A stretch of 64,000 nt of DNA from Candidatus Poribacteria bacterium. GTDB lineage: Bacteria > Poribacteria > WGA-4E > PCPOR2b. The DNA is taken from positions 1,760,001 through 1,824,000 of the forward strand of contig OZ242351.1 in the NCBI GenBank assembly GCA_965208675.1, given 5' to 3'. The position numbers and the translations under genes are program-made. The notes beneath the pieces were generated by a model. It saw only the letters and a program-made list of their open reading frames with translations. It did not search any database and had not been told where the DNA came from. Positions 4,523 through 58,508 of this stretch are shown here, in pieces. Positions within the stretch are counted from its first letter, which is position 1. Every line of letters starts with the position of its first letter.

Positions 4523-5161
4523 ATGAACACGAAACAAAAACTCGCATACATCGTCTTGGGCGGCGTACTCGTCGCCACCGGCATGGTTATTTCGCCTCTC
4601 AACGCGCAGAAAGATAAATTCGGGGACATTGAGTGTTCCAGTCTGACAATCGTTGACGGCGGTCAAGTCGCTGTCACCGGAAAGGACGGGAAAAAGAAAG
4701 CGTTTCTCGCCATCGGCGATCATGGCGGAGGTGTCTGGGTCACTGGCAGAGATGGGAAAGTGAAGGCGGCCTTAGGTGTCACGGAACAAAGTGGGGTTGT
4801 TGATGTGCGTGGATATGAGAACTCGCGGACAGCACTCTATGTCAATCTCTTTGGTGGATGTGTCGATGTCGCCGGCAACGATGGTGAAGTTAAGGCGTTT
4901 CTAGGTGCCACGGGAACAGGCGGGATTGTCAATGTGCAGGGCTCTGAGAAATCGGGCGCGACGCTCAGTGCCCTGTATGGACCGGGCGGCCATGTCGCTG
5001 TTATAGGCAAAGACGGTAAATCGTACGCGTCGCTGTCTGTCGATGAAAACGGAGGGCATGTCGAAGTAATTGGACATGGGAAAGGCGCCGCGGAAATTGG
5101 CATCAATGAAAACGGCAACGGCACGGTGTCGACTTGGGACAATTACGGTAATCAGCAATAG
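4523..5161 (+). CDS. Secreted/membrane-anchored Gly-rich beta-repeat protein of unknown function
   Basis: RBS AGGAG; N-terminal TM then AQKDKFGDIECSSLTIVD; repeated GG.V.V.G.DGK.KA.L units; paralog of 11381-11983. Confidence 0.8.
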   Translation: MNTKQKLAYIVLGGVLVATGMVISPLNAQKDKFGDIECSSLTIVDGGQVAVTGKDGKKKAFLAIGDHGGGVWVTGRDGKVKAALGVTEQSGVVDVRGYENSRTALYVNLFGGCVDVAGNDGEVKAFLGATGTGGIVNVQGSEKSGATLSALYGPGGHVAVIGKDGKSYASLSVDENGGHVEVIGHGKGAAEIGINENGNGTVSTWDNYGNQQ

Positions 5162-5554: not shown

Positions 5555-5934
5555 ATGTTCACAAAGGCATCCGCAGACATTACATTTTCGGATATTGAGG
5601 ATTTTTGCCGTGAGTACGGCGAGGGCGTTAGAGTCGAATACAAGCGAGAAATCAACAAAGATATCCCCAAAATCGTCTCCTCCTTCGCAAACACATTAGG
5701 CGGGATTTTTATTATCGGCGCAGAAACCGATGCGATGAATAAAGTCGTCCTTCCCATTAAGGGTATACCTAAGAGAACCGGGATTGAGGAGCAAATCCAG
5801 CAGAGTGCACTCACCGGCATTTATCCCGCGGTCGTCCCAGAAATATTAATTTGTGCTGTTCCGAACACTGGAGCAGTTGTTGTCATTATTCGTGTTGACG
5901 AGAGCGTACAAGCCCCACACGCAATTCAGAATTC
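5555..5934 (+). pseudogene. AlbA_2 (Schlafen-like) domain protein truncated by IS3
   Basis: EG.RVEYKRE...SSFANTLGGIFIIG motif; the frame runs into the IS left end at 5935 and stops inside it. Confidence 0.85.
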
Positions 5935-6054
5935 TGTAATTACCCCCAAAACCTAGACAGTTGCATAAGAGATCTTTTCGACTAGAAAAATGGTCATCAT
6001 CTGAGCGAAAATAGGACTCGGAAACGCCAAGAAAAAGAAAGGAGTTTCTCCACG

Positions 6055-6342
6055 ATGTCCCGTAGAATACAGCGTGATGGCCGATTCAAAGCGCAAGTGG
6101 CTCTTGAAGCTATCAAGAATCAGCAGACTATCAGTCAGATTGCCAGTGAATACGGTGTCAATCCGGCTCAAGTCAGCCAATGGAAAAAACAGGTGCTTGA
6201 GGAATTACCTCAACTCTTTGCGAAGGGACGTTCAAAAACGGCGTCCGACCACGACAAGCTAGTGTCTGAACTGTATCGCCAGATTGGTCAGTTGAAGGTA
6301 GAACTGGACTGGCTTCAAAAAAAAACGTCGCGCTTCCGTTGA
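6055..6342 (+). CDS. IS3 transposase OrfA (HTH)
   Basis: FKAQVALEA...QIASEYGV.P.QVSQWKK...LYRQIGQLKVELDWL; A9 run at 6317-6325. Confidence 0.92.
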   Translation: MSRRIQRDGRFKAQVALEAIKNQQTISQIASEYGVNPAQVSQWKKQVLEELPQLFAKGRSKTASDHDKLVSELYRQIGQLKVELDWLQKKTSRFR

Positions 6343-6379
6343 ACAGAAGCGGCAGCTTGTTGAACCGGAGTGCCGTTCA

Positions 6380-7153
6380 GTGTCGATTGCAAGACAGTGT
6401 GAGCTCTTAGGCTTGTCTCGAGCATCGTTCTATTACACTCCTGTAGGGGAGTCACCACAAAATCTGCTGTACATGCGTCTGTTAGATGAACAGTACACCA
6501 AGAGGCCGTGGTGTGGGGTGCCTAAGTTAACGAAATGGCTTCGTCGTCAAGGATATGTTGTCAATCCGAAACGGGTAGCACGGTTAATGCGGAAGATGGG
6601 ATTAGTTGCCATCTATCCCAAGATCTCCAGAATGGGCAAACCGTCGAAAGTGTACCCCTATCTGTTGAAAGGATTAAGCATCACCAGACCGAACCACGTC
6701 TGGGCAACTGACATCACCTATATTCGTTTAAGCCATGGCTTCGTTTATCTGGTAGCCATTATGGATTGGTTTTCCCGTTATGTGTTGTCATGGGAACTGT
6801 CAAACTCCCTCGACGTGTTCTTTTGCCTATCGGCTCTGGAACGGGCGCTTGGTAAAGCGAGTCCATTAATATTCAACAACGACCAAGGAAGTCAATTTAC
6901 TTCGGAGGCGTTTACTGCTAGACTTGAAGCCTCTGGCATAGCCATTAGTTGGAACGGTAGAGGCCGCTACTTTGACAACATCTTCGTTGAACGACTTTGG
7001 CGCAGTGTTAAGTATGAGGAGGTTTACCTCAACGACTATGATTCAATGAACACGGCTCGGCGCCGCTTGAGAGATTATTTCAACTTTTACAACCGAGAGC
7101 GACTTCATCAATCGCTCGATTACTGTACACCTTACGAGGTGTATTTTCACTAA
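6380..7153 (+). CDS. IS3 transposase OrfB (DDE/rve integrase core)
   Basis: WATDITY, DQGSQFTS, DNIFVERLWRSVKYE; frame is open upstream through the A9 run. Confidence 0.93.
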   Translation: MSIARQCELLGLSRASFYYTPVGESPQNLLYMRLLDEQYTKRPWCGVPKLTKWLRRQGYVVNPKRVARLMRKMGLVAIYPKISRMGKPSKVYPYLLKGLSITRPNHVWATDITYIRLSHGFVYLVAIMDWFSRYVLSWELSNSLDVFFCLSALERALGKASPLIFNNDQGSQFTSEAFTARLEASGIAISWNGRGRYFDNIFVERLWRSVKYEEVYLNDYDSMNTARRRLRDYFNFYNRERLHQSLDYCTPYEVYFH

Positions 7154-7240
7154 CTTCAGGCGTTTAAGTTTGACCAGAATTAGTCGGACTTTATTACTTA
7201 AATCTCGTTAGTTTCTGTCTAAAGGATGGGGGTAAGTTAA

Positions 7241-7582
7241 ATCCTGAGACAAATAACGGTGGTAAAAGAAGCTGAAGATCGCCGTATAGTACGTTTTGAG
7301 AGTGGAACTAAAATTACTCAGCTCGTTCCGGCTGTTCATGATGCTTTGGTACTTATAGAAAAAAAGATGGCTGAAATAGAATCTGAAGCGAATAGTATTG
7401 CTGACCAAAGGCACCAGAGAGGCATGGAAACCAAATTTGAGTCAAAGAAGAAGGCTCTTGGAGAAGATGTATCAGATTTGTTTGAACAACTTGAACTTCT
7501 CTGTGAGGTTATTTGTCCTGCTGGAGAATTGTTAAAGCGGCATAAAAATCAATTAGAACATAGATTTTCTTCCTATATGTGA
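7241..7582 (+). pseudogene. Helical ORF, probably the 3' remnant of a gene cut by the IS
   Basis: Frame open from the first base after the IS right end (ILRQITVVKEAED...); no convincing RBS for the GTG at 7259. Confidence 0.5.
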
Positions 7583-8155
7583 TATGACTTACGACATGGT
7601 GCGGCGGTCCTTGTTCTGACCAAACACCCTAAATCAAGACTCTTAGGCCGCGTTGAGCGGGACCAATTGAGCGAATAGCGAAGAATCAAGCGAACGACTA
7701 GTGCATGCGATAGTTTTCACCAGTCTATTCTTGCCTTCTCCGTAAACCAACGCTTTCAAATCTCTGGACAACCCCAAGGCAAATCACGCCAAAACGGCGC
7801 GTGAAAGCGCGTTTGCCCGCCCAACTTCCACCTTACTTAACGCACTGTCACGTCTTTCGGCGTCGTTTCACTTAATCATAGCCCATCATTTAATAATACA
7901 AATCACAGTTCAGACAGTCCTCTCCAAAACGCAACAATATAGCCGCCACGGCAACAATATGTTCGTTGCATTTTGTTTTTCGAAATTCCCACCGAGAGCC
8001 AAAGAATACCCTGGCTAAGAACCCAAATCGACACTGTCCCGATATTATCCCGTCATATCCCGCTGCAACGCCACAAACCCTTGCCCCGTCCGCATCCAAG
8101 CGATCTATTTTTCAACCCTATCCGCCCAACAATCTCGGTAACCTCCCACTCCGCC

Positions 8156-8184
8156 TTGACAACCGCTAAATCTCTCGGTATACT
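8156..8184 (+). promoter_or_regulatory. Sigma70-type promoter giving a near-leaderless transcript of the terminase pair
   Basis: TTGACA-N17-TATACT; ATG 8194 begins 9 nt after the -10 box with no SD. Confidence 0.7.
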
Positions 8185-8193
8185 AATATCATC

Positions 8194-8727
8194 ATGGTAC
8201 ATTTAGATATTCGATTCAGCGAATCGGATATCGACTTCACCATTGAGCGATTTGCTTACTATGGCGAAGGAAAAGCTAATGCGAAGCGCGTCATCAGTGA
8301 TGTATGTCAGTATTTTGGGATCGAAGACAATGCCAGCAATCATAAATTATTATCTAATAAAGTTCGTACCTTCAATCCCAACCGAAAAGACTGCGCAGCG
8401 CATTATCGGAGTCGTTACCTTATGAAACGCAATCACATTCTTACCCACAGATACGAACCCGACAGAATTTTTTCGCAGCAATTACATGCACTCTTATTTG
8501 TTGCTTTCAAGGTTCTGTCTGAAGAGATGACGCCTCCCCTCGCGCTCAAACTCATTGAAGCCCAATTCCGATTCGCGATCGACAATAAAAATATAAACTT
8601 TCAGGAAAGAATTGAACGGCAATGCCTAGCCGCCGACACGGGAGATAGCGCATTTCTAAATGGAAAGACGGAGCCGGATTCGCGGAAACCGCAGTCGGTT
8701 TCTGAAAATCCATCGCGCATACCATAG
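8194..8727 (+). CDS. Putative terminase small subunit (DUF2280-like)
   Basis: Directly upstream of and overlapping TerL; FTIERFAYY..VISDVCQYFGIE..VRTFNPNR resembles, from memory, the DUF2280 pattern FIVQ.LACF..V.EEFGIE..V..YDPTK. Confidence 0.55.
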   Translation: MVHLDIRFSESDIDFTIERFAYYGEGKANAKRVISDVCQYFGIEDNASNHKLLSNKVRTFNPNRKDCAAHYRSRYLMKRNHILTHRYEPDRIFSQQLHALLFVAFKVLSEEMTPPLALKLIEAQFRFAIDNKNINFQERIERQCLAADTGDSAFLNGKTEPDSRKPQSVSENPSRIP

Positions 8728-10474
8728 TGTACGCGCGCCGTCCGCCATCAAAAGAACTAAAGAGGAACAGGACATCTATCTCCGCGGTTTTGAAGATGTC
8801 CTCTTCTTTGCCAAGCACCACTTTCCCAATGTGTTTACGGTGGAGTGCGGTCCCCATGCGTCTCCTATTCTGAACTGCATTCCTTCCGGTGAGCGAGGAC
8901 GGCGCGTCAATATCATTGCGCCCAGAGGTTGCGGCAAAAGCACCTACATCGCCGTAATCTACGTGCTGTACTGCGTCTACTACAAAGACGAGTACGAACG
9001 GCGCGGCTTAATGCCCGATAGCTTCATCGTTATCCTGTGCGGTACCGAAGACCTCGCCACGGCACGGCTGGGCGACATCCGAGACAAAATCGAGGACGAT
9101 CCCAACTTCCGCCATCTCAAAGGAAACGGCAAGTGGAGTGCGGACCAGCTCGATACCGCAAACGGAGTATGCCTAATTCCCGTCGGACGGCACGGACGAA
9201 TCCGCGGCGAACTCAAGGATCTCGCAAGACCGACGCTAATTATCCTTGACGATGTCGAAGACAGCGAGGAAGTCCAAAACCCCCGTCTCCGCGATAAAAA
9301 CTGGAAATGGTTCAACGAAGATGTCATGCCTGCCGGCAGAATCGACGGCAAGACAAACTTCATCCACGTCGACACCGTAATGCACGAGGAAGCCATCTCT
9401 AAGCGTCTGCAACTTCTGCCCGACTGGCACACCTTGTTCTACCGTTCTATTGAACACCCCCGAGACCTCCGCCACCCGACCGCCGAGCCGTTATGGGAAG
9501 AGTGGGAGAAAATGTATGCGGACATGTCGATCGAAAAAGACGAGCGTGACCGCCGGGCAAACGCATTTCTTGAAGAACACAAGAATGAAATGCTGGATGG
9601 CGTCCAAGAACTCTGGCCGGAAATGCTCTCCTACACCTACATCCGGCGGCTCATCTGCAACGAAGGTTACATTTCCGTCATGCGCGAGCGTCAAAACTCG
9701 ACCCGCGACCCCTCAAAAGAAATCTTCAACATGGAAAAAGCCGTTCGCTTCAACATCACGCCCGACGGACTCTTGCGAAGCGACGGGCGGCTAGTCCTAT
9801 GGAGCGACATCGCTGGCGGTAAAGTTTTCCTCGACTGGGCTGGCGGAAAGGACGCTTACGATTCCTGCTACGCCGCCGGTGTGTTCGTCCTGTGGGAACC
9901 GCTGCCTCAAGCGAATATGAGGCAAAAGGGAGAACCGGTTGCCGCGCTCTCGAACACCCACGCCTACGTGCTTGACGTCTGGATGGACAAAGTCCCCGTC
10001 ACGGCCCAGCTCGAGGAGACATTTAAACTCATAAAACGCTGTGTCAGCGCTGTGCCGGCCATTCGATTCGATTCCATCCTGCTCGCAGTCGAGGACATTC
10101 CGAAAGACACCGGCAACGCGTTACACACCATGATTTCGCGGGCTTTTAAGGGGGCGCGGGAAAAATACGGCATGAACTCGTTAGTCCGCCTCAAATTCCA
10201 CAAACGAAGTGTCAGGAAGTTGGACCGCATCGCCGCGTTGGAACCGCCTATCGCCAACGGTTGGCTCGTCTTCAATGAGACACTGCCAGAAGTATTTATG
10301 TGCCAGATGCGGCAATTCCCGACCGGCGATTTCTGCGACGGCCCCGATGCCCTGCAAGGCGCGACTGAGTTGCCCATCACGCGCTTCCCCGCTGACAAAC
10401 TGCCGCACGGAATGCCGATGCCGTTCGACGACGATCCGGACGCGTCGATGCACGTTATAAGGAGTTATCTATGA
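8660..10474 (+). CDS. terL: Phage terminase large subunit
   Basis: Walker A APRGCGKST, GRIRG, Walker B RPTLIILDDVED; RNase H-like nuclease residues FLDWAG, AVED, FPTGDFCDGPDAL. Confidence 0.88.
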   Translation: MERRSRIRGNRSRFLKIHRAYHSVRAPSAIKRTKEEQDIYLRGFEDVLFFAKHHFPNVFTVECGPHASPILNCIPSGERGRRVNIIAPRGCGKSTYIAVIYVLYCVYYKDEYERRGLMPDSFIVILCGTEDLATARLGDIRDKIEDDPNFRHLKGNGKWSADQLDTANGVCLIPVGRHGRIRGELKDLARPTLIILDDVEDSEEVQNPRLRDKNWKWFNEDVMPAGRIDGKTNFIHVDTVMHEEAISKRLQLLPDWHTLFYRSIEHPRDLRHPTAEPLWEEWEKMYADMSIEKDERDRRANAFLEEHKNEMLDGVQELWPEMLSYTYIRRLICNEGYISVMRERQNSTRDPSKEIFNMEKAVRFNITPDGLLRSDGRLVLWSDIAGGKVFLDWAGGKDAYDSCYAAGVFVLWEPLPQANMRQKGEPVAALSNTHAYVLDVWMDKVPVTAQLEETFKLIKRCVSAVPAIRFDSILLAVEDIPKDTGNALHTMISRAFKGAREKYGMNSLVRLKFHKRSVRKLDRIAALEPPIANGWLVFNETLPEVFMCQMRQFPTGDFCDGPDALQGATELPITRFPADKLPHGMPMPFDDDPDASMHVIRSYL

Positions 10475-10779
10475 TGACTGAATTAACCAACATGTTAGGG
10501 GCTTCAAAAATGAGCATTCTCAACTTATTTTTTCTGGCGCACAACAATGCTCAACGTCCCGAACCCGCTCCCTGTCTAGCGTCGCGCCCATTTTCGCTTA
10601 TTTTCCTATGTCCCAAATACTCAAAAAATAAGCAAATCAAAAATCCCAAATCTACCCCCTCAACCCAACCTACAAGACCCGCAAAAAATCCTCCCCCTTG
10701 CCAAGTTGGAGGAAACATTTTAACCTCCCCCCTTTATAAGGGGGGATTGAGGGGGGTGGATTTTTGTCAGGAAGATTAA
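10471..10779 (+). pseudogene. Translationally coupled ORF start after terL that decays into repeats
   Basis: SD TAAGGAG at 10458-10464; ATGA overlap with the terL stop; 3' half is made of REP sequence. Confidence 0.35.
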
Positions 10780-10860
10780 TTGAGCGAATAGCGAAGGATC
10801 AACCGACCGCATAGGGAGGGATCAACTGCGAGAATAGCGAAGACGATAGTTTTTTGTTTG

Positions 10861-11189
10861 AAACCGAGTTTTTTCTTCAAAACGCGGTTTCTTAAACACA
10901 ATGTTTATGCGCTGTTTTAATCATAGCCCGTCATTTAATCACATGAATCACAGTTCAGACAGTCGCGATTCGGAAATCGCTCCTACAGGGGGGGTGGATT
11001 TTTGTCAGGAGGGATCGACCGGCCGATTAAATAGGGCGATAGTCTTGTTTCTTTTATTTCAAACCGAGTTTTTTCTTCAAAACTCGGTTTCTTTAACACA
11101 ATGTTTATGCACTGTTTTAATCATAGCCCATCATTTAATCATGCGAATCACAGTTCAGACAGTCGCGATTCGGAAATCGCTCCTACAGG
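10861..11189 (+). repeat. Direct duplication (~130-bp near-identical block, 200-bp period) of repeat modules
   Basis: 10861-10989 vs 11061-11189; contains AAACCGAGTTTT..AAAAC.CGGTTT hairpin, TCAGAC module and GTAG REP. Confidence 0.9.
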
Positions 11190-11251
11190 AAAGGGTTGGT
11201 TGCGGTACGATGAAATTCCGATTCCCGACTCCAAAAACATCAAATTTTGTA

Positions 11252-11280
11252 TTGACACATGTCAAATCATCTTGTATTAT
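11252..11280 (+). promoter_or_regulatory. Sigma70-type promoter with inverted repeat over the -35 box
   Basis: TTGACA-N17-TATTAT; TTGACA-CA-TGTCAA inverted repeat at 11252-11265. Confidence 0.75.
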
Positions 11281-11380
11281 ATTAAGTAAATATGGATAAA
11301 GTATTCAGTGGATGGTCAAAAAATTCTGCTCTCCACTGACCAATAATCACTAACCACTGTTTCAATACGGAGAATGTTGC

Positions 11381-11983
11381 ATGTTTAGGATTCAAAATTG
11401 GAAGCAAGCACTCGGTTTAATGGCGCTGGGAAGTGTGTTCACCTTTGTCGGGATGCTGCTGTCTCCAGTCACAGCGCAACGGGATAAGTACGGTGAGATC
11501 GAGTGTACTAAATTAACCATTGTCGATTCCAAAGGAAACGAACGAGTCTTATTGACAAACGAAGGATTCATCAAAATCGAAAATGAAAACGGTACTGTTT
11601 CCTCCATTCGCGGTGGCGACATCCGAACATATTATCTAACGATTGAACAAAATGGTATGCCAATCGCCCGATTAGGACGCGACGACAAAAATTTCGTCGC
11701 CGGAAAATTTACCATTAACAATACACTTGGAGATGAATTGGTGCGTATTGGTCCTTCCCAATATTCTTATAACGCCGGGCACATAACAATTCATGAACAC
11801 GGTATGTCAACGGATAGGCGTGAAGCCAAAACGTTAGATTTCGACGCCGGTAACAGATTAAATCAAATTACCATGACAAAGAAAAACACTCCCAACCAGC
11901 CAATTGTGTCATTGTCAATTCAGGAGTTCGGTACCTCTAAAACCGGTATAGTTCAAGCCGATGAATTTAGGAAAAACCGCTAA
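11381..11983 (+). CDS. Secreted/membrane-anchored beta-rich protein, paralog of 4523-5161
   Basis: N-terminal TM then AQRDKYGEIECTKLTIVD; RBS GGAG. Confidence 0.8.
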   Translation: MFRIQNWKQALGLMALGSVFTFVGMLLSPVTAQRDKYGEIECTKLTIVDSKGNERVLLTNEGFIKIENENGTVSSIRGGDIRTYYLTIEQNGMPIARLGRDDKNFVAGKFTINNTLGDELVRIGPSQYSYNAGHITIHEHGMSTDRREAKTLDFDAGNRLNQITMTKKNTPNQPIVSLSIQEFGTSKTGIVQADEFRKNR

Positions 11984-11994
11984 TTCCAATCTAA

Positions 11995-12507
11995 ATGGAG
12001 AATATTCTAATGAAAAAAGGAATGACCGTTGCAAGCGTCGTTTTTGTATCAGTCTTATTCTTCGCGCTGTCTAGTCCCACGTCCAACGAAAAAATTATCT
12101 TTGTCGGTATCCCTAAGATGAAGGTAATCACCACTCCTCCCTCCAAAACCGACCCTATAGAAACATTAACACCAAGAAAACTCAAGGATTCTGAGTCCCC
12201 AGGATATCTTTGCGTTATCAGTAAAATCGGCGACAAATATTATCACAAAAGCAGAGCGGGCAAAGAATTGTTAATGAGTCGAAGTGGCGCGTTTATCACC
12301 TTTAACCGTGCTGACGGACAGCCCGACTATGTCCGATTATGGGATACGACCTTTCCCATAGCCCCCAACCGCGAATCTGACAGATTCCAATACGTTGAAG
12401 TAATCACACAGTTTTTAAGTTCTATTACCTATTGGGGAGAGATTACCGATCCGCCTGACTTCCGCTTATGGAAGTCGTCCATCCCTCAAGGCAACGACTG
12501 GAAATAA
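11995..12507 (+). CDS. Hypothetical exported protein
   Basis: N-terminal signal-like segment; co-oriented and closely spaced with its neighbours. Confidence 0.7.
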   Translation: MENILMKKGMTVASVVFVSVLFFALSSPTSNEKIIFVGIPKMKVITTPPSKTDPIETLTPRKLKDSESPGYLCVISKIGDKYYHKSRAGKELLMSRSGAFITFNRADGQPDYVRLWDTTFPIAPNRESDRFQYVEVITQFLSSITYWGEITDPPDFRLWKSSIPQGNDWK

Positions 12508-12535
12508 AACGCCAGTCGCCGTCGGGTGAAAGAAA

Positions 12536-12901
12536 ATGTCAGATGTAGAGACTTTGCTGCATAAATTGCGAGATTTAACTATAGACGCTGAGCGTGGAGT
12601 TACGGCTCTCCAAGAAAAATTGGAAGACCTATTGAAACAACTTCGGCAGGAATACAAGCAGGGCAAGCTTTCAGACGACATTGTTGAGGAAATAAAATCC
12701 CGCAAGGCTCAAATCCTAGAAATAAATCGGAAGATACATGAAGGTAAATTGAAACCGGAATACAAGCCGAATGCCAACAACAACCTAACTTACTGCCCTA
12801 GGTGTGATTCTAAGGCGCTTAAAGTTTCATATGGGAAATACGGAAAGCAATGGCGAAACTGTTCTGTCTGTGGAAACAGTAATAGAATTGATTTTTTCTA
12901 G
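12536..12901 (+). CDS. Hypothetical coiled-coil protein with C-terminal Zn-ribbon
   Basis: Heptad-rich N-terminus; CPRC...CSVC. Confidence 0.7.
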   Translation: MSDVETLLHKLRDLTIDAERGVTALQEKLEDLLKQLRQEYKQGKLSDDIVEEIKSRKAQILEINRKIHEGKLKPEYKPNANNNLTYCPRCDSKALKVSYGKYGKQWRNCSVCGNSNRIDFF

Positions 12902-13079
12902 AGATTACAAAATGACGTATGCTTCTCTGAAACGAAATCAATCAAATCCTTATAGATGCCGATGCAAACATTTCCTCTCAACAACTTCTTGTGTGTTAGG
13001 ATTAACTGAAAGGATTGCTCGGGATCATCCCAATGTATAGTGAGGGCGATAGTTTTTCGCTATTCCCCACGGCAAAATG

Positions 13080-13181
13080 CGTTGGGTTACGCTCCGCGCC
13101 TCGACTTTTGTGCGTCGTTTGGCTCCAGGAGCGAACGTAAAATTGTGCATCAATTCATACAATCCGCTCAACCCAACCTAC
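13080..13181 (-). repeat. REP-like arm with 68-nt expanded loop
   Basis: CGTTGGGTTACGC ... CCGCTCAACCCAACCTAC. Confidence 0.85.
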
Positions 13182-13193
13182 AAAAACTACTGA

Positions 13194-13421
13194 CTGGATT
13201 ATCGCGAGGATTTCGGAAACACCACAGCGGATGCAATCTACGCTCAACGGATTGACCCAAACGGCAAATCCCTATGGCCGCTCAACGGCATTCCAATCTG
13301 TACGGCTGATGGGAATCAAATTACGCCGCAAGCCAGCTCCGACGGTAAGGTCGGTGCTTTCATCATTTGGAGCGACGGCCGAACCGATGAACCAGATATT
13401 TACATCCATCGCGCACCGTAA
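13194..13421 (+). pseudogene. 3' remnant of a beta-propeller-type repeat protein (not in the ORF track)
   Basis: Start-less frame LDYREDFGNTTADAIYAQRIDPNGKSLWPLNGIPICTADGNQITPQASSDGKVGAFIIWSDGRTDEPDIYIHRAP*. Confidence 0.75.
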
Positions 13422-13683
13422 GCATTGAAAGTATTCTATGACTAGATTGCCGGCAGCATTCGATTTAGTTTTAGCCGCTTTAATCAGCCAGAGGATGTGG
13501 AAATCATTGTGGAGAGTATGAGACAGATTCGAGGGTTGGGCTAGCCCAAACTTCCAATACCTTGCTAAATCGCTGTGGATTTACAAGCTGAAGTTGGGGT
13601 TATGGTGGGTAAGAATTCGCTTTCGCAGGCGTTTGCTGGCAACGATAAAGCCTACGAAGTTAGAACCACATTCCGATTACCCG

Positions 13684-15243
13684 CTAAATCAATAAGTCGT
13701 CGCCGATTGGAAAGAACTGGTCGGCGGCGCGAAGCAGATCCATTGATGTATTATGTTCAAAGGCTACAATCTCTATACGCTTCTGCTGTTGCTTTATGGT
13801 TTCAGCAAGTGCGCAAAAATCCCCATCGCCGCTCGCCAGAATGACGACATCCAGAGCGTCCAGCCTTGAAACCACGTCTATCGTGATCCCAACGTCCCAA
13901 TCCCCCTTTGCCGATCCATCCCCGCGCAGCCGCAAATCCTTACTCTTTATGGTATACCCGTTGTGTTCCAGCAGCGACAAGAAACCCGCTTGGTTAATTT
14001 CAGGGATTTGGACGACATACGCATACGCCAAAACCAGTTTTCGGGGACCAACTATGAGGTCGAGAAGCTTAATGTAATCCAGGCGTCCGGCGTACCGGTC
14101 TTTTGCTGCATAGAACATGTTCTGTACATCAACAAAAACCCCGACGGCAGGTTGGTTCTCCGCTATACGCGTACGGGTTCCGCCGCCAATCGCCTGTCTG
14201 TCAACGAAATTGTTTGAGATCCTTTCCTCTTCGTGCGTTATTACGACTCTCGAATTCCTGTGACTCTCCCGCAAATTGGCAAGATTAGCTTGGGGATCCG
14301 AGCGATTCCGACCGATAATTTCCAGACTCCGGTATGCCGCTTTTTCAACGGATTTTAGTTCCAGCGCAAGCTGCGTTCTCTCTGCCTTAAGTTGATGGAG
14401 GTCGCCAAGCTGATTAGAAAGGTTCTGGACATCTTCTCGAAGCGTTATATTTTCATGCTCTAGCTGCTCGCAACGGGATTCAATTTCCTCGTATTGATGC
14501 TGTTCGTGATCCTTTAATTGGCTGATTTCGCCGGCTAACTCTTGGAGTTGTTGTTTAAGTTCACTATTTTCGTGTTGCGACGCCGCCTGTTCACGCTGAA
14601 ATTCATGAATAGTTTGGTGGAGTTCATCAATCTTTGCATTTTGCTCAGAAATCTGGTTTAAGTCAGGCTTAGCAACCGGACTCGTTACCAAAGCCGCGCT
14701 GGCGGCTTCGTCACCTACATCGCGGCTAGACTGGGCATTCTCGACGTCCATATCCGACGCCTCGGCCTCAGATTCTGCCGGTAAGCTGCGAGAATCTACA
14801 TTTTGGCTAGCTTCGTTAGAAAAAGCCTGGGACTGAAGGTGTTGATCGTGCTGCGCAAGCAGCGTGACGCCGTGCTGTTGCACAGCGTCACGCGGATTAA
14901 TCAACAACGCCCAGATCATTGGGCCGAATTCCCCATCGTCCAAGAGCTGCGCCGCGTCTCTCAAGTAAAGCCGTATCTCTTCGACGTTCATGTACTCTAC
15001 CCGGCGCGCTGCGTGTTCCGCCTTTTTTACAAGCGACCAACTCACCAACTTTTCAATTATGGCTTTATCAAAGAATTCCGCCGCTAATGTTTTCGAAAGG
15101 GAATGCAATTCCTCCGATTCACTATGGATACCACATTGCTCTGCCAACGTCGTAATTTCTTGTCCGCTGAAGCAGTCATCAAGAATCCAAGCTAGATGAT
15201 GTGCGGGAATACGTACATTCACCTTTGGATAATCCTGAAACAT
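13684..15243 (-). CDS. NYN (LabA/DUF88) domain protein with N-terminal extension and coiled coil
   Basis: VFVDVQNMFY, KGDWDVG, LASGDGDF motifs. Confidence 0.88.
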   Translation of the reverse strand: MFQDYPKVNVRIPAHHLAWILDDCFSGQEITTLAEQCGIHSESEELHSLSKTLAAEFFDKAIIEKLVSWSLVKKAEHAARRVEYMNVEEIRLYLRDAAQLLDDGEFGPMIWALLINPRDAVQQHGVTLLAQHDQHLQSQAFSNEASQNVDSRSLPAESEAEASDMDVENAQSSRDVGDEAASAALVTSPVAKPDLNQISEQNAKIDELHQTIHEFQREQAASQHENSELKQQLQELAGEISQLKDHEQHQYEEIESRCEQLEHENITLREDVQNLSNQLGDLHQLKAERTQLALELKSVEKAAYRSLEIIGRNRSDPQANLANLRESHRNSRVVITHEEERISNNFVDRQAIGGGTRTRIAENQPAVGVFVDVQNMFYAAKDRYAGRLDYIKLLDLIVGPRKLVLAYAYVVQIPEINQAGFLSLLEHNGYTIKSKDLRLRGDGSAKGDWDVGITIDVVSRLDALDVVILASGDGDFCALAETIKQQQKRIEIVAFEHNTSMDLLRAADQFFPIGDDLLI

Positions 15244-19975: not shown

Positions 19976-20479
19976 TTAATCCATTTCAAGAGGCGTGAGA
20001 ATCTGTGTGTCGGCGGGGATTTGCGGGAGGGTACAGGCTTCAAAAGTCAATTGCAAATCGCGTGGGCGGTATGGCGTGCCGAATGCACCTAGAGTGGATT
20101 CTCGAACGATGCGTTGGAGATGGCGGACTGACGCTTGAGTGAATCTAGCGCTGACAAATAGGTACGAATTCGGCGTGACGGCTTCGCCGCGAAGCCGCTT
20201 CCACCTGAGAAATGTCTTCAACTGTCCTTGAAATTCTTTCGATACGGGGATGGCCCGCGGTTTATTTTCGTGCCCAACTTTCGCGCCAATGTGGAGGTGG
20301 GTAAAGGTTTCAACGCTGGGCTTTAGATGGGCGACGCGTAATTCACGCAGTTCAGCAACACTCAATCCGGTCCGCAGAATGGTTAGCACAACGCAGAAAT
20401 CTCGAAAGTTGCGGTTTCGATGCGTCCAGTCAAGGAGTCGGAGTTCTTCATCGATTGTCAATATCTTCGGTCTGCGCAT
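19976..20479 (-). CDS. Short tyrosine-recombinase-fold protein with degenerate active site
   Basis: RD...L...TGLSVAEL (normally TGxR); PRDLQLTF (normally HxLRHTF); no C-terminal Tyr box. Confidence 0.7.
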   Translation of the reverse strand: MRRPKILTIDEELRLLDWTHRNRNFRDFCVVLTILRTGLSVAELRELRVAHLKPSVETFTHLHIGAKVGHENKPRAIPVSKEFQGQLKTFLRWKRLRGEAVTPNSYLFVSARFTQASVRHLQRIVRESTLGAFGTPYRPRDLQLTFEACTLPQIPADTQILTPLEMD

Positions 20480-23558: not shown

Positions 23559-25781
23559 CTACTTGACAACCACCATCCGCCGTAACGCGGTGTAATCACC
23601 CGTTCGGAGTTGATAGTAATAAGTTCCGCTTGTGACGGGTTCGCCGTTTTGGTTGCGGCCGTCCCAATACGCAGCACTCGCTTTATCTCGGTAGACACCC
23701 GACTTTTTGCGTCCAATGTCAAGGGTCTGAACGATGTGACCGCTCTGGTCATAGATGTTCAAAGTCACAGGGGCATCACTTGCCAACTGATAAGGTATCC
23801 ACGTTTCGGGGTTGAACGGATTTGGATAATTTTGCAGCAACGCCGTGCGTTTGATGTTTCCCAGCGTGGTCACCCGTTGCGCCAACGGTTTCACTCCTAG
23901 TTCTGTTGAACAAGCGAATTCCCATAGCAACACGGTGCCGTCCCGCGAGCCGCTAGCAAGGGTACCGCAATCGCGACTGAAGGCAACGTCATAAACCCCC
24001 GACGTTCCACCCCGTATAGCTAGCGTATGCCCGGTTAGCGTTTGAATCAGTTCGCCCGTGTTGGCGTCCCACAAACGAATCGTATCGTCCCAACTAGCGC
24101 TACTTGCGAGCGTACGTCCATCAGGGCTAAATGCAACGCTTTCCACCGGACCCGTGTGCCCTGTGAGCTTACGCAGGCGTTCTCCCGTATGGGTGTCCCA
24201 CAATCGGATAGCGTCCGCACTCCCACTAGCGATAGTTTTGCCGTCAGGACTGAACGCAACGCTCTGGACCGCAGGCATAGGCCGGTTTAAATTACGCAAG
24301 TGTTTTCCCGTTTCCGCGTTCCATAGACGGATTGTACCGTTAAAACTCCCGGTGGCAATGGTTGCGCCATCGGGACTGAACGCTATGCTTTGGACAAAAA
24401 ACACATCCTTGAGCCTTCCTTTTAGTCTCCCCCTATGAGCGTCCCATAGACGGACGGTAGGGTCCGCACCCCCGCTGGCAATTGTGCTTCCATCGGGACT
24501 GAACGCAACACTATACACACCACCTCTATGCCCGGCGAGTGTTTGCCGGTGTTCTCCCGTATCCGCATCCCACAGACGGACGGTACGGTCCCAACTCCCG
24601 CTAACGACGGTGCTTCCATCGGGACTGAACGCAACACTATAGACCACAAGCCTATGCCCGGTGAGCGTTCGCTGAAGATTTCTCGTATCTGCGTCCCACA
24701 GACGGATGGTACCGTCATGACCGCCGCTTGCGATGGCGCCGCCATCCGGGCTAAACGCAACGCCATTGATTCCATCAGTGTGCTCGGCGTACGTCTGCAA
24801 GTGTTCCCCTGTATTGGCCTCCCATAGACGGATGGTGTTGTCAAAACTCCCACTGGCGATTGTGCCACCATCCGGACTAAACGCAACGCTATAGACCCAA
24901 TCTGCGTGACCGGTGAGCGTGCGCAGGTGTTTTCCTGTATCGGGCTCCCACAATCGGATGGTATTGTCAAAACTCCCGCTAGCGATGGTCCTGCCATCCG
25001 GTCTGAACGCAACGCTACGAACATCATCCGTATGCCCCTTGAGTGTTCGAAGGTGTATTTTTTTATCGGCACCCCACAATCGGATGGTATCGTCTCGACT
25101 CCCACTGACGATGGTATTGCCATCCGGACTAAACGTGACGCTATAGACCCAATCTGCGTGACCGGTAAGCGTTCGCAAGTGTACCCCTGTATCGGACTCC
25201 CACAGCCGGATAGTATTGTCCCAACTCCCACTGGCAATTTTACCACCATCCGGACTGAATGCAACGCAACGAACCGCGCCCGTATGCCCGGTGAGCGTTC
25301 GCAGGTGTTCCCCCGTATCGGTGTCCCACAAACGGATGGTCGCGTTCCCATTTCCGCTAGCGATGGTGCTGCCATCGGGACTGAACGCAACGCAATATAC
25401 ACCAGATTTATTCCGTGTGAGCGTTCGCAGGTGTTCTCCGGTATCGGCGTTCCATAGACGAATGCTGCCGTCCACACTCCCACTCGCGATGGTGCCGCTA
25501 TCGGGACTGAACGCAACGCTCCAGACCAAACTCGTATGCCCTGTGAGCAGGGCAACTTCTTTATGGTTCGCCGTATCGTAAATCCAAACGCCGATACTGC
25601 CGGCGACCGCAAGTCGAGTACCGTCGGGCGAATACTGAATTTCACTTATCCTACCTTTGCCGAGGCGTGCTTTAGCGCCATCAGGTAAACTCAATTCCGA
25701 TGAATCTTGGGCGAAACTGTGGGGAACACACGGAGCGAAAACGAACAACAGAGTAACAATGAAAAACATTGTTTTCATCAT
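23559..25781 (-). CDS. Secreted WD40-repeat protein (~13-14 repeats) with FlgD-Ig/T9SS-like C-terminal domain
   Basis: Same N-cap (LPDGAKARLGKG) and CTD (LLQNYPNPFNPETW) as 442-2772. Confidence 0.93.
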   Translation of the reverse strand: MMKTMFFIVTLLFVFAPCVPHSFAQDSSELSLPDGAKARLGKGRISEIQYSPDGTRLAVAGSIGVWIYDTANHKEVALLTGHTSLVWSVAFSPDSGTIASGSVDGSIRLWNADTGEHLRTLTRNKSGVYCVAFSPDGSTIASGNGNATIRLWDTDTGEHLRTLTGHTGAVRCVAFSPDGGKIASGSWDNTIRLWESDTGVHLRTLTGHADWVYSVTFSPDGNTIVSGSRDDTIRLWGADKKIHLRTLKGHTDDVRSVAFRPDGRTIASGSFDNTIRLWEPDTGKHLRTLTGHADWVYSVAFSPDGGTIASGSFDNTIRLWEANTGEHLQTYAEHTDGINGVAFSPDGGAIASGGHDGTIRLWDADTRNLQRTLTGHRLVVYSVAFSPDGSTVVSGSWDRTVRLWDADTGEHRQTLAGHRGGVYSVAFSPDGSTIASGGADPTVRLWDAHRGRLKGRLKDVFFVQSIAFSPDGATIATGSFNGTIRLWNAETGKHLRNLNRPMPAVQSVAFSPDGKTIASGSADAIRLWDTHTGERLRKLTGHTGPVESVAFSPDGRTLASSASWDDTIRLWDANTGELIQTLTGHTLAIRGGTSGVYDVAFSRDCGTLASGSRDGTVLLWEFACSTELGVKPLAQRVTTLGNIKRTALLQNYPNPFNPETWIPYQLASDAPVTLNIYDQSGHIVQTLDIGRKKSGVYRDKASAAYWDGRNQNGEPVTSGTYYYQLRTGDYTALRRMVVVK

Positions 25782-52390: not shown

Positions 52391-52807
52391 TCAGTTAAAC
52401 GGATCTAATGTCACCTCAAATGGTTCATGCGGCTGTCGCTGAATCCATGATTGCAAATGTTCGGCAATTATTTCCACATCGGTTATCGTCCCATCCGCAA
52501 TCTTGAAGCCAAGTTCAATAATCAAATCATCAATGTTGAGACTAGGGGCAGAACCGTTCAAAACTAAAAACCAGAGCGCGCAGGTCAGACCAATTCGCTT
52601 ATTCCCGTCTAAAAACATATGTCTAGTAATAATGTGATGGGCATATACAGCAGCCTTTCGGGGCAACGTCGGAAACAGTTCTGAATCACCTAATTTTTCA
52701 CCGACTATTTCAACCAAATAGTGTAACTGATTTTCATTCAACAACTGATAACTATCCACCTGCCCCTTAGCAACCCTCAGAATGTCCTCAATTGTCAAAT
52801 ACTTCAC
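52391..52807 (-). CDS. doc: Fic/Doc (death-on-curing) toxin
   Basis: HMFLDGNKRIG Doc motif; GTG start at 52807 overlaps the upstream stop (GTGA). Confidence 0.9.
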   Translation of the reverse strand: MKYLTIEDILRVAKGQVDSYQLLNENQLHYLVEIVGEKLGDSELFPTLPRKAAVYAHHIITRHMFLDGNKRIGLTCALWFLVLNGSAPSLNIDDLIIELGFKIADGTITDVEIIAEHLQSWIQRQPHEPFEVTLDPFN

Positions 52808-54672
52808 GGTTTTGCTAGAGTTTTCCATGCTCGATCGTAGTTTCTTATTATCTCGTCCAAGTCGACTTCAGCATCGCTCACCGATTCGTGAGTGGCTTCT
52901 CCATTTCTTTCTTTTCGCATGGCAATTATCTGGGGTGTTAACATTGCGGCGATGTCGGCGGGTAATTGAATTCCTGTTATCTGCTCAAAACTTTCAACGC
53001 TTCCGTAATCGTTACGAAATGCAGCGATAATGTTTATCCCCATGTCTCTGGCATTCATTAGGTCTGATGTGGCTTTTTCCCACTCTCTTAGGTGTAGCCA
53101 TGCCTCACCACGATTGTAATAGGCCTCGGCATAATCAAGTTTGAGTGCTATCGCTTTGGTACAATCGTTGATGACGTGCTTATAATCGCCTTTTTTAAGG
53201 TATGCATTGCTGCGATTGTAATAGGCACTAGCATAATCGGGTTTGAGTTGTATCGCTTTGGCATACTCCGCTATCGCACGGTCAATATCACCTTTTGTCT
53301 CGTAAACAATACCGAGATTGGTATAGACTTCCACCAAATTTGGAGTCAATTGTATTGCCATATTCAAATCTTCAATCGCACGGTTAAAATTGCCCTTTAC
53401 GCAATAAACTATTCCACGCCCGCAATAGGCTTCAGCATGATTAGCGTTGAATTGTATAGCAGTGTCATAGTTTTCGATGGCGCGGTCAAGATTGCCCTTA
53501 TACATATAAGCATTACCGCGACTACTATAGGCTTTGGCAGAATCGGGTTTCAGTTCTATGGCTTTGTCGTGGTCTTGAATGGCACGGTTATAATTGCCCT
53601 TATACGCATAAGCATTACCACGATTGCTATAGGCTTCGACCGAATCGGGATTGAGTTCTATCGCTTTGTTAAAGTTATCAATCGCCTTGTCAAAATCACC
53701 TTGTTCCCCGTAAACTATACCACGACCATTGTAAGCATCAGCAAAATCCGGTTTCCAGTCTATCGCTTCGTTAAAATGATAGATGGCAGAGTCAAAATCT
53801 TCTAACATGGAATGAGCTCTACCACAGTTAATATGTGCCATGACAAGATTCGGCATTAGCTCTAGTGTAGCTCTATAATGATTAACAGCTTTTTTATAGG
53901 CATCATGCCTTCCTTGCAAGGTTTCTGCTGTGGATCCTTGCTCTTCATACTCACGTGCAATATAAAACTCGACAAAGGCACTCCGATATCGACTCTGCAT
54001 TGTGATAAAACCATGAAGATCGTTGTAGATTGTTTCTGTAGTTATAGGAGAATCTTGCCTCATCAGATACTTTAGAATAGGCACCTTGAGGGTTTTTGGA
54101 ATACAGATAACCTGGTCAGCATCTGGCTTAATAAAGCCATTAGGTGGTTGAACGAATACGCTCTTTTGAGCTTCAACGCGATGCTTAGGTTCGGTCGGCT
54201 CCCAAATTGTACCTGCTATTGCTCCGCGATCTTGTACGATAATTCTACCATCTTTGTTGTAGTGACCGTCACAAGCAAAGAAGAGGGCTACGCGATAGTC
54301 TGTTGTAAAGTCTATTAGGTTGGTTTCTCCACCCCAGTGTTGGATTTCGGCTAGAATTTCAAACTGTCTCTCTGTATACTCGAAGGGGTTGTAGTCACCA
54401 CTCCATAGGAAATAAGACCTCTGGCTTTGGCTGGGCCCGAGTCTATTGATATCGTACTCTTCAGCCTGAGTCAGTATCTGCTTTTGGATTCTCGTCATAC
54501 CGACTTTCGCAACTGGTTGGCATTCACGCCAGAGACTAGAGGAGACTTCCAGATAACATTCAGGTTCACCTCGGAAGATGTAGGTGCCATCTGCCGATTT
54601 CTCCTTTATATCGTCGATGACGTCCTGAACTGTGCGTGGCGTATCATTTGAGGTGTTGGATTGATTTGACAT
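52804..54672 (-). CDS. FRG-domain plus TPR-repeat protein with antitoxin-like C-terminal extension
   Basis: YIFRGE, QHWGGETNLIDFT.D..VALFFAC, R..AQ.SVF; about 10 TPRs; tail ..LDEIIRNYDRAWKTLAK. Confidence 0.88.
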   Translation of the reverse strand: MSNQSNTSNDTPRTVQDVIDDIKEKSADGTYIFRGEPECYLEVSSSLWRECQPVAKVGMTRIQKQILTQAEEYDINRLGPSQSQRSYFLWSGDYNPFEYTERQFEILAEIQHWGGETNLIDFTTDYRVALFFACDGHYNKDGRIIVQDRGAIAGTIWEPTEPKHRVEAQKSVFVQPPNGFIKPDADQVICIPKTLKVPILKYLMRQDSPITTETIYNDLHGFITMQSRYRSAFVEFYIAREYEEQGSTAETLQGRHDAYKKAVNHYRATLELMPNLVMAHINCGRAHSMLEDFDSAIYHFNEAIDWKPDFADAYNGRGIVYGEQGDFDKAIDNFNKAIELNPDSVEAYSNRGNAYAYKGNYNRAIQDHDKAIELKPDSAKAYSSRGNAYMYKGNLDRAIENYDTAIQFNANHAEAYCGRGIVYCVKGNFNRAIEDLNMAIQLTPNLVEVYTNLGIVYETKGDIDRAIAEYAKAIQLKPDYASAYYNRSNAYLKKGDYKHVINDCTKAIALKLDYAEAYYNRGEAWLHLREWEKATSDLMNARDMGINIIAAFRNDYGSVESFEQITGIQLPADIAAMLTPQIIAMRKERNGEATHESVSDAEVDLDEIIRNYDRAWKTLAKP

Positions 54673-58417: not shown

Positions 58418-58438
58418 CCTTCTATTCTCGGAAGTGCT

Positions 58439-58508
58439 GTGGGGGCAGGTACAAGACCTGCCCCCACATTTGAACAATTCGTGTAGGGGCAACCCTTATG
58501 GTTGCCTT
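58439..58508. repeat. Pair of GT(A/G)G REP hairpins
   Basis: Perfect 12-bp IR GTGGGGGCAGGT/ACCTGCCCCCAC and GTAGGGGCAACC..GGTTGCC; a related copy at ~41042. Confidence 0.75.

Follow-up and report, generated by a model that had tools for sequence, protein, structure and literature searches.

Phage-derived two-gene terminase cassettes in multiple copies in a Candidatus Poribacteria genome in which no virion genes were found

A large terminase gene with its small upstream partner, and with no phage around the pair, was found in a stretch of 64,000 nucleotides (nt) from a Candidatus Poribacteria bacterium that lives as a sponge symbiont (GenBank assembly GCA_965208675.1, contig OZ242351.1, positions 1,760,001 to 1,824,000 of the forward strand), which is called the window below. 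The source chromosome is a single contig of 4,892,038 bp (96.4% complete), and the window corresponds to G000:C1:1760001-1824000. Here G000 is the window's own genome, G005, G021 and G038 are its congeners, and the four genomes together make up genus g1; coordinates without a genome or locus name are those of the window. The cassette consists of a sigma70-type promoter (8156-8184), a small upstream open reading frame (ORF1, 8194-8727, 177 amino acids) in the position of a small terminase (TerS) and a large terminase gene (TerL, 8660-10474, 604 amino acids), all on the forward strand. Judged from the sequence, this two-gene terminase cassette is self-contained and phage-derived, exists in multiple copies and is under purifying selection, and no virion genes were found in the genome that carries it.

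The window protein is a large terminase with an N-terminal packaging ATPase and a C-terminal RNase H-like nuclease. Its reading frame is uninterrupted, starts at the first start codon of the frame (an ATG) and overlaps ORF1 by 68 nt. The protein matched the PHROGs profile phrog_38, 'terminase large subunit', with an E value of 4.2e-55, and phrog_4758 with an E value of 2.4e-5. The matches to TIGR01630 (31.5 bits; cut-off 41.65) and termin_lrg_T7 (24.4 bits; cut-off 150) were weak and below the cut-offs, none of the Pfam TerL models matched, and a TerL profile found no match among the sequences of the Protein Data Bank (PDB). An AlphaFold2 model of TerL, built on 34 relatives, reached a pLDDT of 83.5. 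When the model was used in Foldseek, full-length matches to the terminases of PhiV-1, T4 (gp17), HK97, Sf6 and D6E were obtained with E values from 6e-17 to 1e-7, including 6.3e-17 for PhiV-1 (8dgc_E, T7-like), 2.1e-12 for T4 gp17 and 2.1e-9 for HK97, in alignments of 576-607 columns. The model also matched structures of nuclease domains (human cytomegalovirus, herpes simplex virus, P74-26 and similar).

We then assigned the catalytic residues of TerL by conservation. In the family alignment of 34 members, P88, R89, K93, D197, D198, T239, D392, D560 and D563 are invariant, and the same is almost true of G90, T95 and E478. K93 was assigned to Walker A, D197/D198 to Walker B, and D392, E478, D560 and D563 to the nuclease. 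These residues, together with D238 and T239, are retained in 24 of the 24 intact copies of the genus, and TerL is apparently catalytically intact. An earlier note on this DNA, made from the sequence alone, had described an uninterrupted 604-residue TerL with Walker A/B motifs and acidic nuclease residues, and the profile match, the fold and the conserved residues all bear this out. The same note had called a coupling motif DTVMH and two cysteines at usually aspartate positions odd substitutions, which they are not in this family: the family consensus is itself DTVKHEE, and both cysteines lie in variable columns, close to D560/D563 (invariant) and D392 (invariant or nearly so).

A TerL search of the whole genome found six full-length open copies and two short C-terminal fragments. 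The six copies are A at G000 position 1768660 (the window copy), B at 3833571, C at 2115777, D at 1071532, E at 4873083 and F at 1042317. Copy B is 82% identical to A, and copies C to F are 37-40% identical to it. The copies form three subfamilies, A+B, C+D+F (in which the TerL proteins share 64-69% mutual identity) and E, and the subfamilies are 37-40% identical to one another. Between the cassette loci only ORF1 and TerL are common. A survey of orthologous pairs and their gene context across Poribacteria, such as the earlier note had called for, showed that the pairs recur and that across 45 loci the upstream ORF and TerL are each other's sole conserved neighbours. A conserved third gene was considered and rejected, since clustering of the neighbours over the 45 loci found none. 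The neighbouring ORFs of the six cassettes are housekeeping, transport and restriction-modification genes and insertion sequence (IS) elements.

No virion genes were found beside the cassettes or elsewhere in the genome. Pfam searches of 69 ORFs beside copies B to F and of 25 ORFs around copy A (24 of them also searched against PHROGs) returned no phage structural gene, and no head, tail, portal or lysis PHROGs were matched among 49 window ORFs. The sole integrase-like ORF of the window is partial (167 amino acids, 19976-20479) and lies in conserved backbone about 9.5 kb from the cassette. The pair therefore stands alone in the 64 kb, as had been noticed from the sequence. The genome was also searched for unlinked portal and capsid genes. 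No match was found to the portal families phrog_156, PF04860 and PF05133 or to the HK97 capsid family PF05065, and control genomes were positive in the same searches. A profile of the Poribacteria phage portal had no match in G000 or in the three congeners. When the non-terminase ORFs of six other loci with TerL relatives (L239, L229, L233, L248, L251 and L258) were compared with the genome, no homologue was found except for host-type paralogue families.

To follow selection on the cassettes, we calculated pairwise Nei-Gojobori dN/dS ratios, which were 0.15-0.37 for TerL and 0.10-0.66 for ORF1 (18 pairs). The TerL ratios are similar to those of neighbouring accessory genes (0.08-0.35). Copy C has a syntenic counterpart in all three congeners, copy F in two and copy E in one. 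The synonymous divergence (dS) between syntenic TerL genes is 1.0-1.07 for C and 0.56-0.63 for F, compared with 0.9-1.2 for flanking genes, and the frames are still open. Because a frame of 1.9 kb stays open at a dS near 1, purifying selection is indicated. The pair is not strain-specific, with 24 copies in four genomes.

The upstream ORF was also investigated. An overlapping upstream ORF of 162-222 amino acids is present at six of the six loci of G000, at 36 of 39 other Poribacteria loci, and on a phage contig (L239, described below). These upstream ORFs share a nearly invariant 'NP' motif, mostly with an arginine before it (R..NP). The ORF1 of copy B and the upstream ORF of the L239 phage are weakly related (22-24% over 63-66 residues), and the upstream ORFs of two sibling stand-alone lineages can be recognised as TerS (phrog_4102, E values of 2.7e-23 and 9.5e-11). 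By its position, the shared motif and these related lineages, ORF1 is a putative small terminase.

The structural model of ORF1 (pLDDT 78) is all-helical, with an N-terminal bundle of three helices (residues 10-23, 27-41 and 47-56), a helical hairpin and a long helix (69-85, 92-109 and 114-149) and a disordered acidic tail. The predicted fold would be compatible with a TerS architecture without being specific to it. Family searches of ORF1 in Pfam, PHROGs, NCBIfam and PADLOC gave no match. The earlier note had called the protein DUF2280-like, a label that has to be dropped, as the DUF2280 Pfam model did not match at E values up to 1. A phmmer search against 1.84 billion representative proteins found five matches, all of them close relatives or fragments. 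An ORF1 profile searched against the PDB gave only apolipoprotein-like noise, Foldseek found no match in the PDB or BFVD at E values of 0.001 or below, a wide structure search with VIA-align found only generic helical hairpins (Z of 8.1 at most), and scores against the ESM Atlas were below 0.9. The fold comparison of 8194-8727 with TerS and DUF2280 thus yielded an all-helical model and no specific match.

The promoter of the cassette, TTGACA-N17-TATACT at 8156-8184, is present as first reported and agrees with the consensus at 11 of 12 positions. In the 64 kb this exact pattern is found a single time, compared with 0.01 occurrences expected. The ATG of ORF1 follows 9 nt after the -10 box with no Shine-Dalgarno sequence, so that the ORF is leaderless or nearly so. 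In group 1, which comprises A, B and three congeneric copies, this geometry of -35 box, 17-nt spacer, -10 box and 9 nt to the ATG is kept in five of the five copies; the -35 box is TTGACA (once TTGAAT), the -10 box is TATACT, TACACT or TAATAT, and the sequence of the spacer is variable. The DNA 5' of the -35 box cannot be aligned among the group-1 copies. Since the homology starts at the promoter, the promoter belongs to the cassette unit, and the cassette's own sigma70 promoter looks constitutive. Cassettes of groups 2 and 3 have Shine-Dalgarno leaders in place of the leaderless arrangement. As a separate observation, palindromes of the form TTACA-N-TGTAA (for example TTACAACGTTGTAA) lie 60-80 nt before the group-2 small ORFs of copies C (region G000 2115130-2115250) and D (1073726-1073845), and these palindromes may be operator or recognition sites.

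Downstream of TerL, the earlier note had seen a strong Shine-Dalgarno sequence and an ATGA-coupled third start. The motif exists: AGGAG and an ATGA-coupled start at 10471 open a frame at 10471-10779. A real third ORF does not, and the segment at 10469-10673 (forward strand) is a non-coding dispersed repeat of about 170-200 nt. The repeat has at least 11 genomic copies, two of them joined to TerL C-terminal fragments, with in-frame stop codons in 7 of 11 copies and 10-nt indels between copies. Its variation is flat over the codon positions (0.184/0.211/0.183), and its fold energy is unremarkable (z of -1.25). Rfam returned nothing relevant in 7000-13500 or in the G005 cassette unit. The right junction of the repeat at about 10670 is sharp, and the DNA in common with copy B and with the G021 copy described below stops with this repeat. 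We rejected this 'ORF3' as a small gene or as the N-terminus of a portal, since it is a non-coding repeat and the genome has no match to related-phage portals. The repeat was also rejected as a general part of the cassette, as it is present only after copies A and B among the six cassettes of the genome. With ORF3 explained as a repeat and the two-gene pattern recurring many times, the idea of a remnant that lost its portal fits badly.

The genus also contains evidence on the mobility of the cassettes. The closest relative of copy A is G021_2 (G021:904015-906816), which is 91% identical over window positions 7869-10670. It lies about 760 kb from the position matching the conserved right flank of A, and the G000 site that matches the right flank of G021_2 has no cassette. 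In the window the conserved backbone starts at about 13190-13440, and everything leftwards is variable island. G005 has three copies of a unit of about 3.0 kb that are 90-92% identical, with unrelated flanks and sharp ends, and G038 has two copies of a 3.07-kb unit with 88.6% identity. Derivatives with an internal deletion, in which 8215-8410 is joined to 10486-10638 and both ends are retained, are found in G005, in G038 and in the window's own genome. The edges of the unit coincide with dispersed repeats. Terminal inverted repeats and target-site duplications were not seen at the inspected junctions, where edges lying in dispersed repeats could hide short signals, and the unit carries no recombinase or transposase. 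On these comparisons, some cassettes stay in place over long periods, and others move or duplicate as units of 2.5-3 kb.

Two further observations concern the G005 units and their edges. In the G005 units (L120, G005:3125500-3145300, at 11240-12035 of that locus; L121; L122), the non-coding TerS leader of about 575 nt is almost identical, compared with about 90-92% for the whole unit, which suggests gene conversion or strong constraint. A motif of about 35-40 nt, AAAATTACAGTTTTTACAGTC.ATAAAAAAAGGGG, is found at the 5' boundary of the G005 unit and has at least 12 copies in G000 (for example 2606482-2606519, 4390763-4390803 and 710390-710424). Several copies of this motif are reverse-complemented and lie 50-80 nt after copies of the 170-nt repeat that follows TerL.

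The distribution of the TerL family was then analyzed. Relatives with at least 37% identity come only from Candidatus Poribacteria records and from one 6-kb contig binned as an archaeon. The latter (L259, CBDAOC010000008.1, 6,227 nt, binned as Nitrososphaerales) encodes a Poribacteria-type TerL N-terminus with 39% identity and is probably mis-binned. The next best matches, at 26-31%, are from Planctomycetota, Alphaproteobacteria and a few other lineages. In IMG/VR and a metagenome collection the best segments of relatives span 21-46% identity: those in IMG/VR reach 23-32%, and those in the metagenome collection about 23-33% near full length, the higher values there being confined to short segments. 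Within a phylum sample of 151 genomes, TerL was found in 31 and the profile of the associated portal in 19. The own genus g1 has 6, 8, 6 and 5 TerL matches in its four genomes, and the portal in none of the four; 24 of its TerL genes are intact, and the congeners carry 5-8 copies each. In genus g6, TerL is present in 8 of 38 genomes (17 matches), and none of the 38 has the portal. Genus g2 has about one TerL and about one portal per genome, the portal lying 1-4 kb downstream of TerL, as prophages. Genus g7 has 2-6 TerL genes and about one portal per genome, some of the portals with stop codons. Homologues are thus not confined to complete prophages, as genera g1 and g6 have TerL and no portal.

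Phage relatives of the same TerL family were identified. A contig of 38,183 nt (L239 and L291) carries, in one direction, a TerS-position ORF, a TerL 41% identical to that of copy A, four small ORFs and the portal phrog_156. It also encodes an HNH endonuclease, a structural protein, an internal virion protein, an endolysin and a replication initiator. With its portal, structural, virion and endolysin genes, this contig is a phage. Prophages with the same TerL family are present in other genera (L229, L230 and L233), and several TerL relatives (44-47% identity) are encoded on contigs of 42-44 kb that are known from their proteins and size alone.

A tree of 79 TerL sequences was built by a quick search with midpoint rooting, and several of its joins involve long branches. 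In this tree, clades of stand-alone pairs are intermixed with clades from phage contexts. The sister of group 1 consists of P0035, P0038 and P0039 from contigs of about 43 kb (SH-aLRT 97), that of group 2 consists of the g7 copies, and that of the E clade includes the g2 prophages. To explain this pattern, stand-alone pairs must have arisen from phage lineages several times independently, or there must have been exchange between stand-alone and phage lineages. A horizontal spread of group 1 across families was rejected, as relatives of at least 75% identity were found only in g1 (30 representative loci). On this phylogeny and gene content, the cassettes of the TerL family descend from podovirus-like (T7-flavoured) Poribacteria phages of about 38-43 kb.

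Around the cassette in the window, both flanks are mosaics of repeats with tens of genomic copies, in agreement with the earlier note. A dispersed repeat of the repetitive extragenic palindromic (REP) type at 7868-7934, with about 25 genomic copies, forms the left edge of the DNA in common with the G021 copy. On the right, a REP-type mosaic at 10674-11219 has tens of copies per segment and is not present at this place in copy B: the homology between A and B ends at 10673 and restarts at 11220. The stretch 11220-11400 has an 82% identical counterpart after copy B, and G005_1 and G021_1 are likewise followed by similar sequence. On the forward strand at 11252-11983 lie a second strong promoter (TTGACA-17-TATTAT, 11252-11280) and a repeat-protein gene (11381-11983). 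This gene has been duplicated together with cassettes of group 1, and we treat it as their linked neighbour and not as a functional part of the cassette. The left junction of the cassette is supported by a 1,728-nt contig of an independent short-read assembly of the same sample, which spans 7208-8935. Joints in DNA contigs of that sample (four runs) were repeat-derived only, with sides of 20-32 letters, and are uninformative on excision.

The gene at 11381-11983 and another at 4523-5161 belong to a family of secreted or membrane-anchored proteins with 18 arrays in the genome. Between a conserved N-terminus (...SPVTAQRDKFGEIECTKLTVVD) and a conserved C-terminus, its members have 'EHGGxVxAxGKDGK' repeats of about 21 residues in variable number, and they occur at other loci as well (L137:5742-6899, L137:11876-14301, L138:6581-8527 and L139:12859-13608). 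A member lies within 1.2 kb of four of the six cassettes, as in none of 20,000 trials of random placement; the copies at A and B are related, as are those at C and D. The family has no Pfam or PHROGs match and one weak lead only, gp37_trimer on 13% of one Atlas cluster.

Other genes of the window and of the cassette neighbourhoods include defence-type genes at 5555-5956, 13684-15243, 52391-52828 and 54839-58492, after copy C (G000 2117909-2121887) and before copy F (1037375-1039207). The set contains a Type ISP restriction-modification enzyme with DUF2806, a methylase-Mrr fusion, a Schlafen AlbA_2 fragment, a coiled-coil NYN nuclease (PADLOC NYN, 1.9e-10), a Doc-like toxin and a methyltransferase-containing protein of 1217 residues. 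An IS3-family element at 5934-7239 (orfA 6055-6342, orfB 6380-7153) has 95%-identical copies elsewhere in G021 and more in all congeners, and is probably active. Two WD40 beta-propeller proteins are encoded at 442-2772 (776 amino acids) and 23559-25781 (740 amino acids), and their C-terminal segment is repeated at many genomic sites.

What the cassettes do has to be judged from these patterns. The earlier note had suggested a domesticated packaging module in the form of a dispersed gene transfer agent (GTA), a device that hijacks helper-phage heads or a dominant-negative decoy. A stand-alone and maintained pair is indeed what was found, and of these forms the dispersed GTA is disfavoured, with no portal, HK97 capsid or related-phage structural homologue in the genome, and so is the catalytically dead decoy, as none of the 24 copies has lost an ATPase or nuclease residue. 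Hijacking of helper-phage heads, or interference with them, is the function that we prefer by inference. We tentatively favour, with slightly less than an even chance of its being right, the reading that the cassettes have been captured repeatedly from phages and kept by selection, and that they act on the DNA or procapsids of related infecting phages. An active terminase would be useful without the phage's own genome, and the cassettes would be retained for this use. During infection by related phages, the resident TerS and TerL could compete for the procapsid portal of the incoming phage, and the resident terminase could cut or package DNA picked by the resident TerS. The outcome would be sabotage of phage packaging (defence), diversion of capsids to host or cassette DNA (piracy, transduction), or both. 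A set of diverged cassettes, with a different phage clade closest to each, would allow several phage lineages to be matched. We favour a role related to infection because, to our knowledge, an active terminase has no substrate other than the procapsid and concatemeric DNA, because each subfamily has its own nearest phage clade, and because patchy occurrence, multiple copies and fast evolution are together characteristic of conflict systems.

A number of points weigh against a role in infection. PADLOC assigned ORF1, TerL and ORF3 to no family, so that no anti-phage defence system was matched, no partner gene is conserved over the 45 loci, and neither family searches nor fold comparisons linked ORF1 of the window to a TerS. 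An active nuclease that is expressed constitutively would have to be kept in check, and no restraining mechanism is apparent here. The decayed fragments and internally deleted derivatives show that some copies die. The C-terminal tail of TerL is usually the portal-docking end. Most family members, including phage-borne ones, end in an Arg-rich stretch with a hydrophobic-x-hydrophobic motif; the group-1 tail (10390-10474) is acidic and Pro-rich and ends in HVIRSYL, and group 1 may no longer dock on the same portals. Finally, the contigs of about 43 kb that define several of the 'phage' clades are known from proteins and size alone.

A bolder form of the infection-related reading, which we find possible although on the unlikely side, is that of a minimal, promoter-equipped 'terminase-only' element that derives, by repeated capture, from podophages of about 40 kb, is present in 5-8 diverged copies per genome and, during infection, jams or commandeers the capsids of matching phages. 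The packaging enzyme itself would then be the weapon or the vehicle, giving immunity by packaging mimicry, a selfish element that pirates capsids, or both. As a selfish pirate, such an element would be far smaller than any known satellite.

Alternatively, the cassette may be a selfish mobile element of 2.5-3 kb that spreads within and between Poribacteria chromosomes by REP recombination, by self-promoted transduction or through an unrecognised activity of the TerL nuclease, with no benefit to the host. The discrete, sharp-ended duplicates with unrelated flanks (three at 90-92% identity in G005, two at 88.6% in G038), the different site of G021_2 and the corresponding G000 site without a cassette point in this direction, and so do the copy number of 5-8 among congeners, the patchy occurrence (31 of 151 genomes), the deleted derivatives with both ends retained and the unit edges at dispersed repeats. 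We nevertheless consider it rather unlikely that selfish spread is the whole explanation: the inspected junctions showed neither terminal inverted repeats nor target-site duplications, the unit has no recombinase or transposase and the IS3 element is separate from it, and we know of no terminase nuclease that integrates DNA. Copies C, F and E are syntenic across species, and group 1 occurs only in g1 among representative genomes, so that wide horizontal spread is not evident. Another possibility is a cellular role for the host that has nothing to do with phages, in which a domesticated ATP-driven translocase-nuclease with a DNA-binding partner serves, for example, DNA repair, repeat recombination or chromosome processing. 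Long-term retention, intact catalytic sites, the cassette's own promoter and the failure to find phage partners in the genome agree with a host role, yet the patchy distribution, the divergence, the variable copy number and the recurrent capture from phages are what is typically seen with conflict or mobile genes rather than with housekeeping functions, and no partner gene of the host is conserved; we regard a host role as improbable.

Ordinary prophage relics, in which the terminase genes are the last survivors of a slow decay, could be expected where prophages of the same family occur in other genera and some g7 portals carry stop codons. The window's own genome also has two fragments of TerL C-termini as well as ORF1 fragments, and the cassettes lie in variable, repeat-rich islands. 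Such relics would hardly leave 24 of 24 frames open with the catalytic residues kept, a dN/dS of 0.15-0.37 and a conserved promoter. No other phage gene is present at the six loci of the genome, no portal was found in the four genomes of the genus, the syntenic copies are intact at a dS of about 1, and duplication as a two-gene unit is unlike decay. We give slow decay as little credence as a host role. GTAs with dispersed loci are known, and the cassette could be the packaging arm of one whose head and tail genes lie elsewhere, in line with its own promoter and the absence of adjacent phage genes. Against such an arrangement, the single-contig genome and the congeners have no match to a portal or HK97 capsid and no homologue of the structural ORFs of related phages (tail families were not searched separately), and six diverged terminases would be odd for one GTA. 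A dispersed GTA is in our judgement very improbable, and taken together a simple relic or a GTA is unlikely.

The proteins described here are new members of known families, and they are arranged as a repertoire of promoter-equipped TerS and TerL pairs without virion genes. In the literature listings and abstracts covered, we found no description of stand-alone multi-copy terminase pairs. There is a real chance that they represent a new kind of element. Terminases are taken as a hallmark of complete phages, and a TerL match is routinely used to call a prophage; a genus with many active-looking terminase pairs and no virion genes found would mislead prophage callers. The cassettes suggest that selection maintains a packaging motor in some role outside a virus. 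If they interfere with phages or hijack them, they would represent a new principle of defence or of satellites, and a possible driver of gene transfer in sponge symbionts, which cannot be cultured and whose phage biology is almost unknown. Six natural cassette variants per genome and a related phage contig with a portal make the case testable.

The comparison with known systems may start from the large terminases of tailed phages, of which PhiV-1 (8dgc_E) is the closest solved. They have the same full-length two-domain fold as the window TerL, and their Walker A/B motifs, coupling DT, acidic nuclease site and overlapping small upstream partner are also present in the cassette. A phage TerL works with the portal and procapsid of the same genome; the cassette stands alone, in several copies and under a promoter of its own, in a genome where searches found neither portal nor capsid. 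Cryptic prophage remnants are likewise phage-derived, located in a variable island and flanked by IS elements and repeats, whereas the cassettes consist of the same two genes only, which are intact, selected, duplicated as a unit and recurring. GTAs of the RcGTA type hold domesticated phage packaging genes under selection in the chromosome, as is the case here, but they keep portal, capsid and tail genes, of which neither portal nor capsid was found in the cassette's genome. Phage satellites (PICI/SaPI with TerS, cf-PICI, PICMI and VEIME; PMC12822802) are chromosomal and lack a full virion set, like the cassettes, and a terminase component of their own redirects helper capsids. The cassettes could do the same. 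Known satellites are islands of several kilobases or more with integrase, regulation and replication genes and usually with TerS only. The cassette, by comparison, has 2.5-3 kb, no integrase, primase or repressor, and a gene in the TerS position together with a complete TerL.

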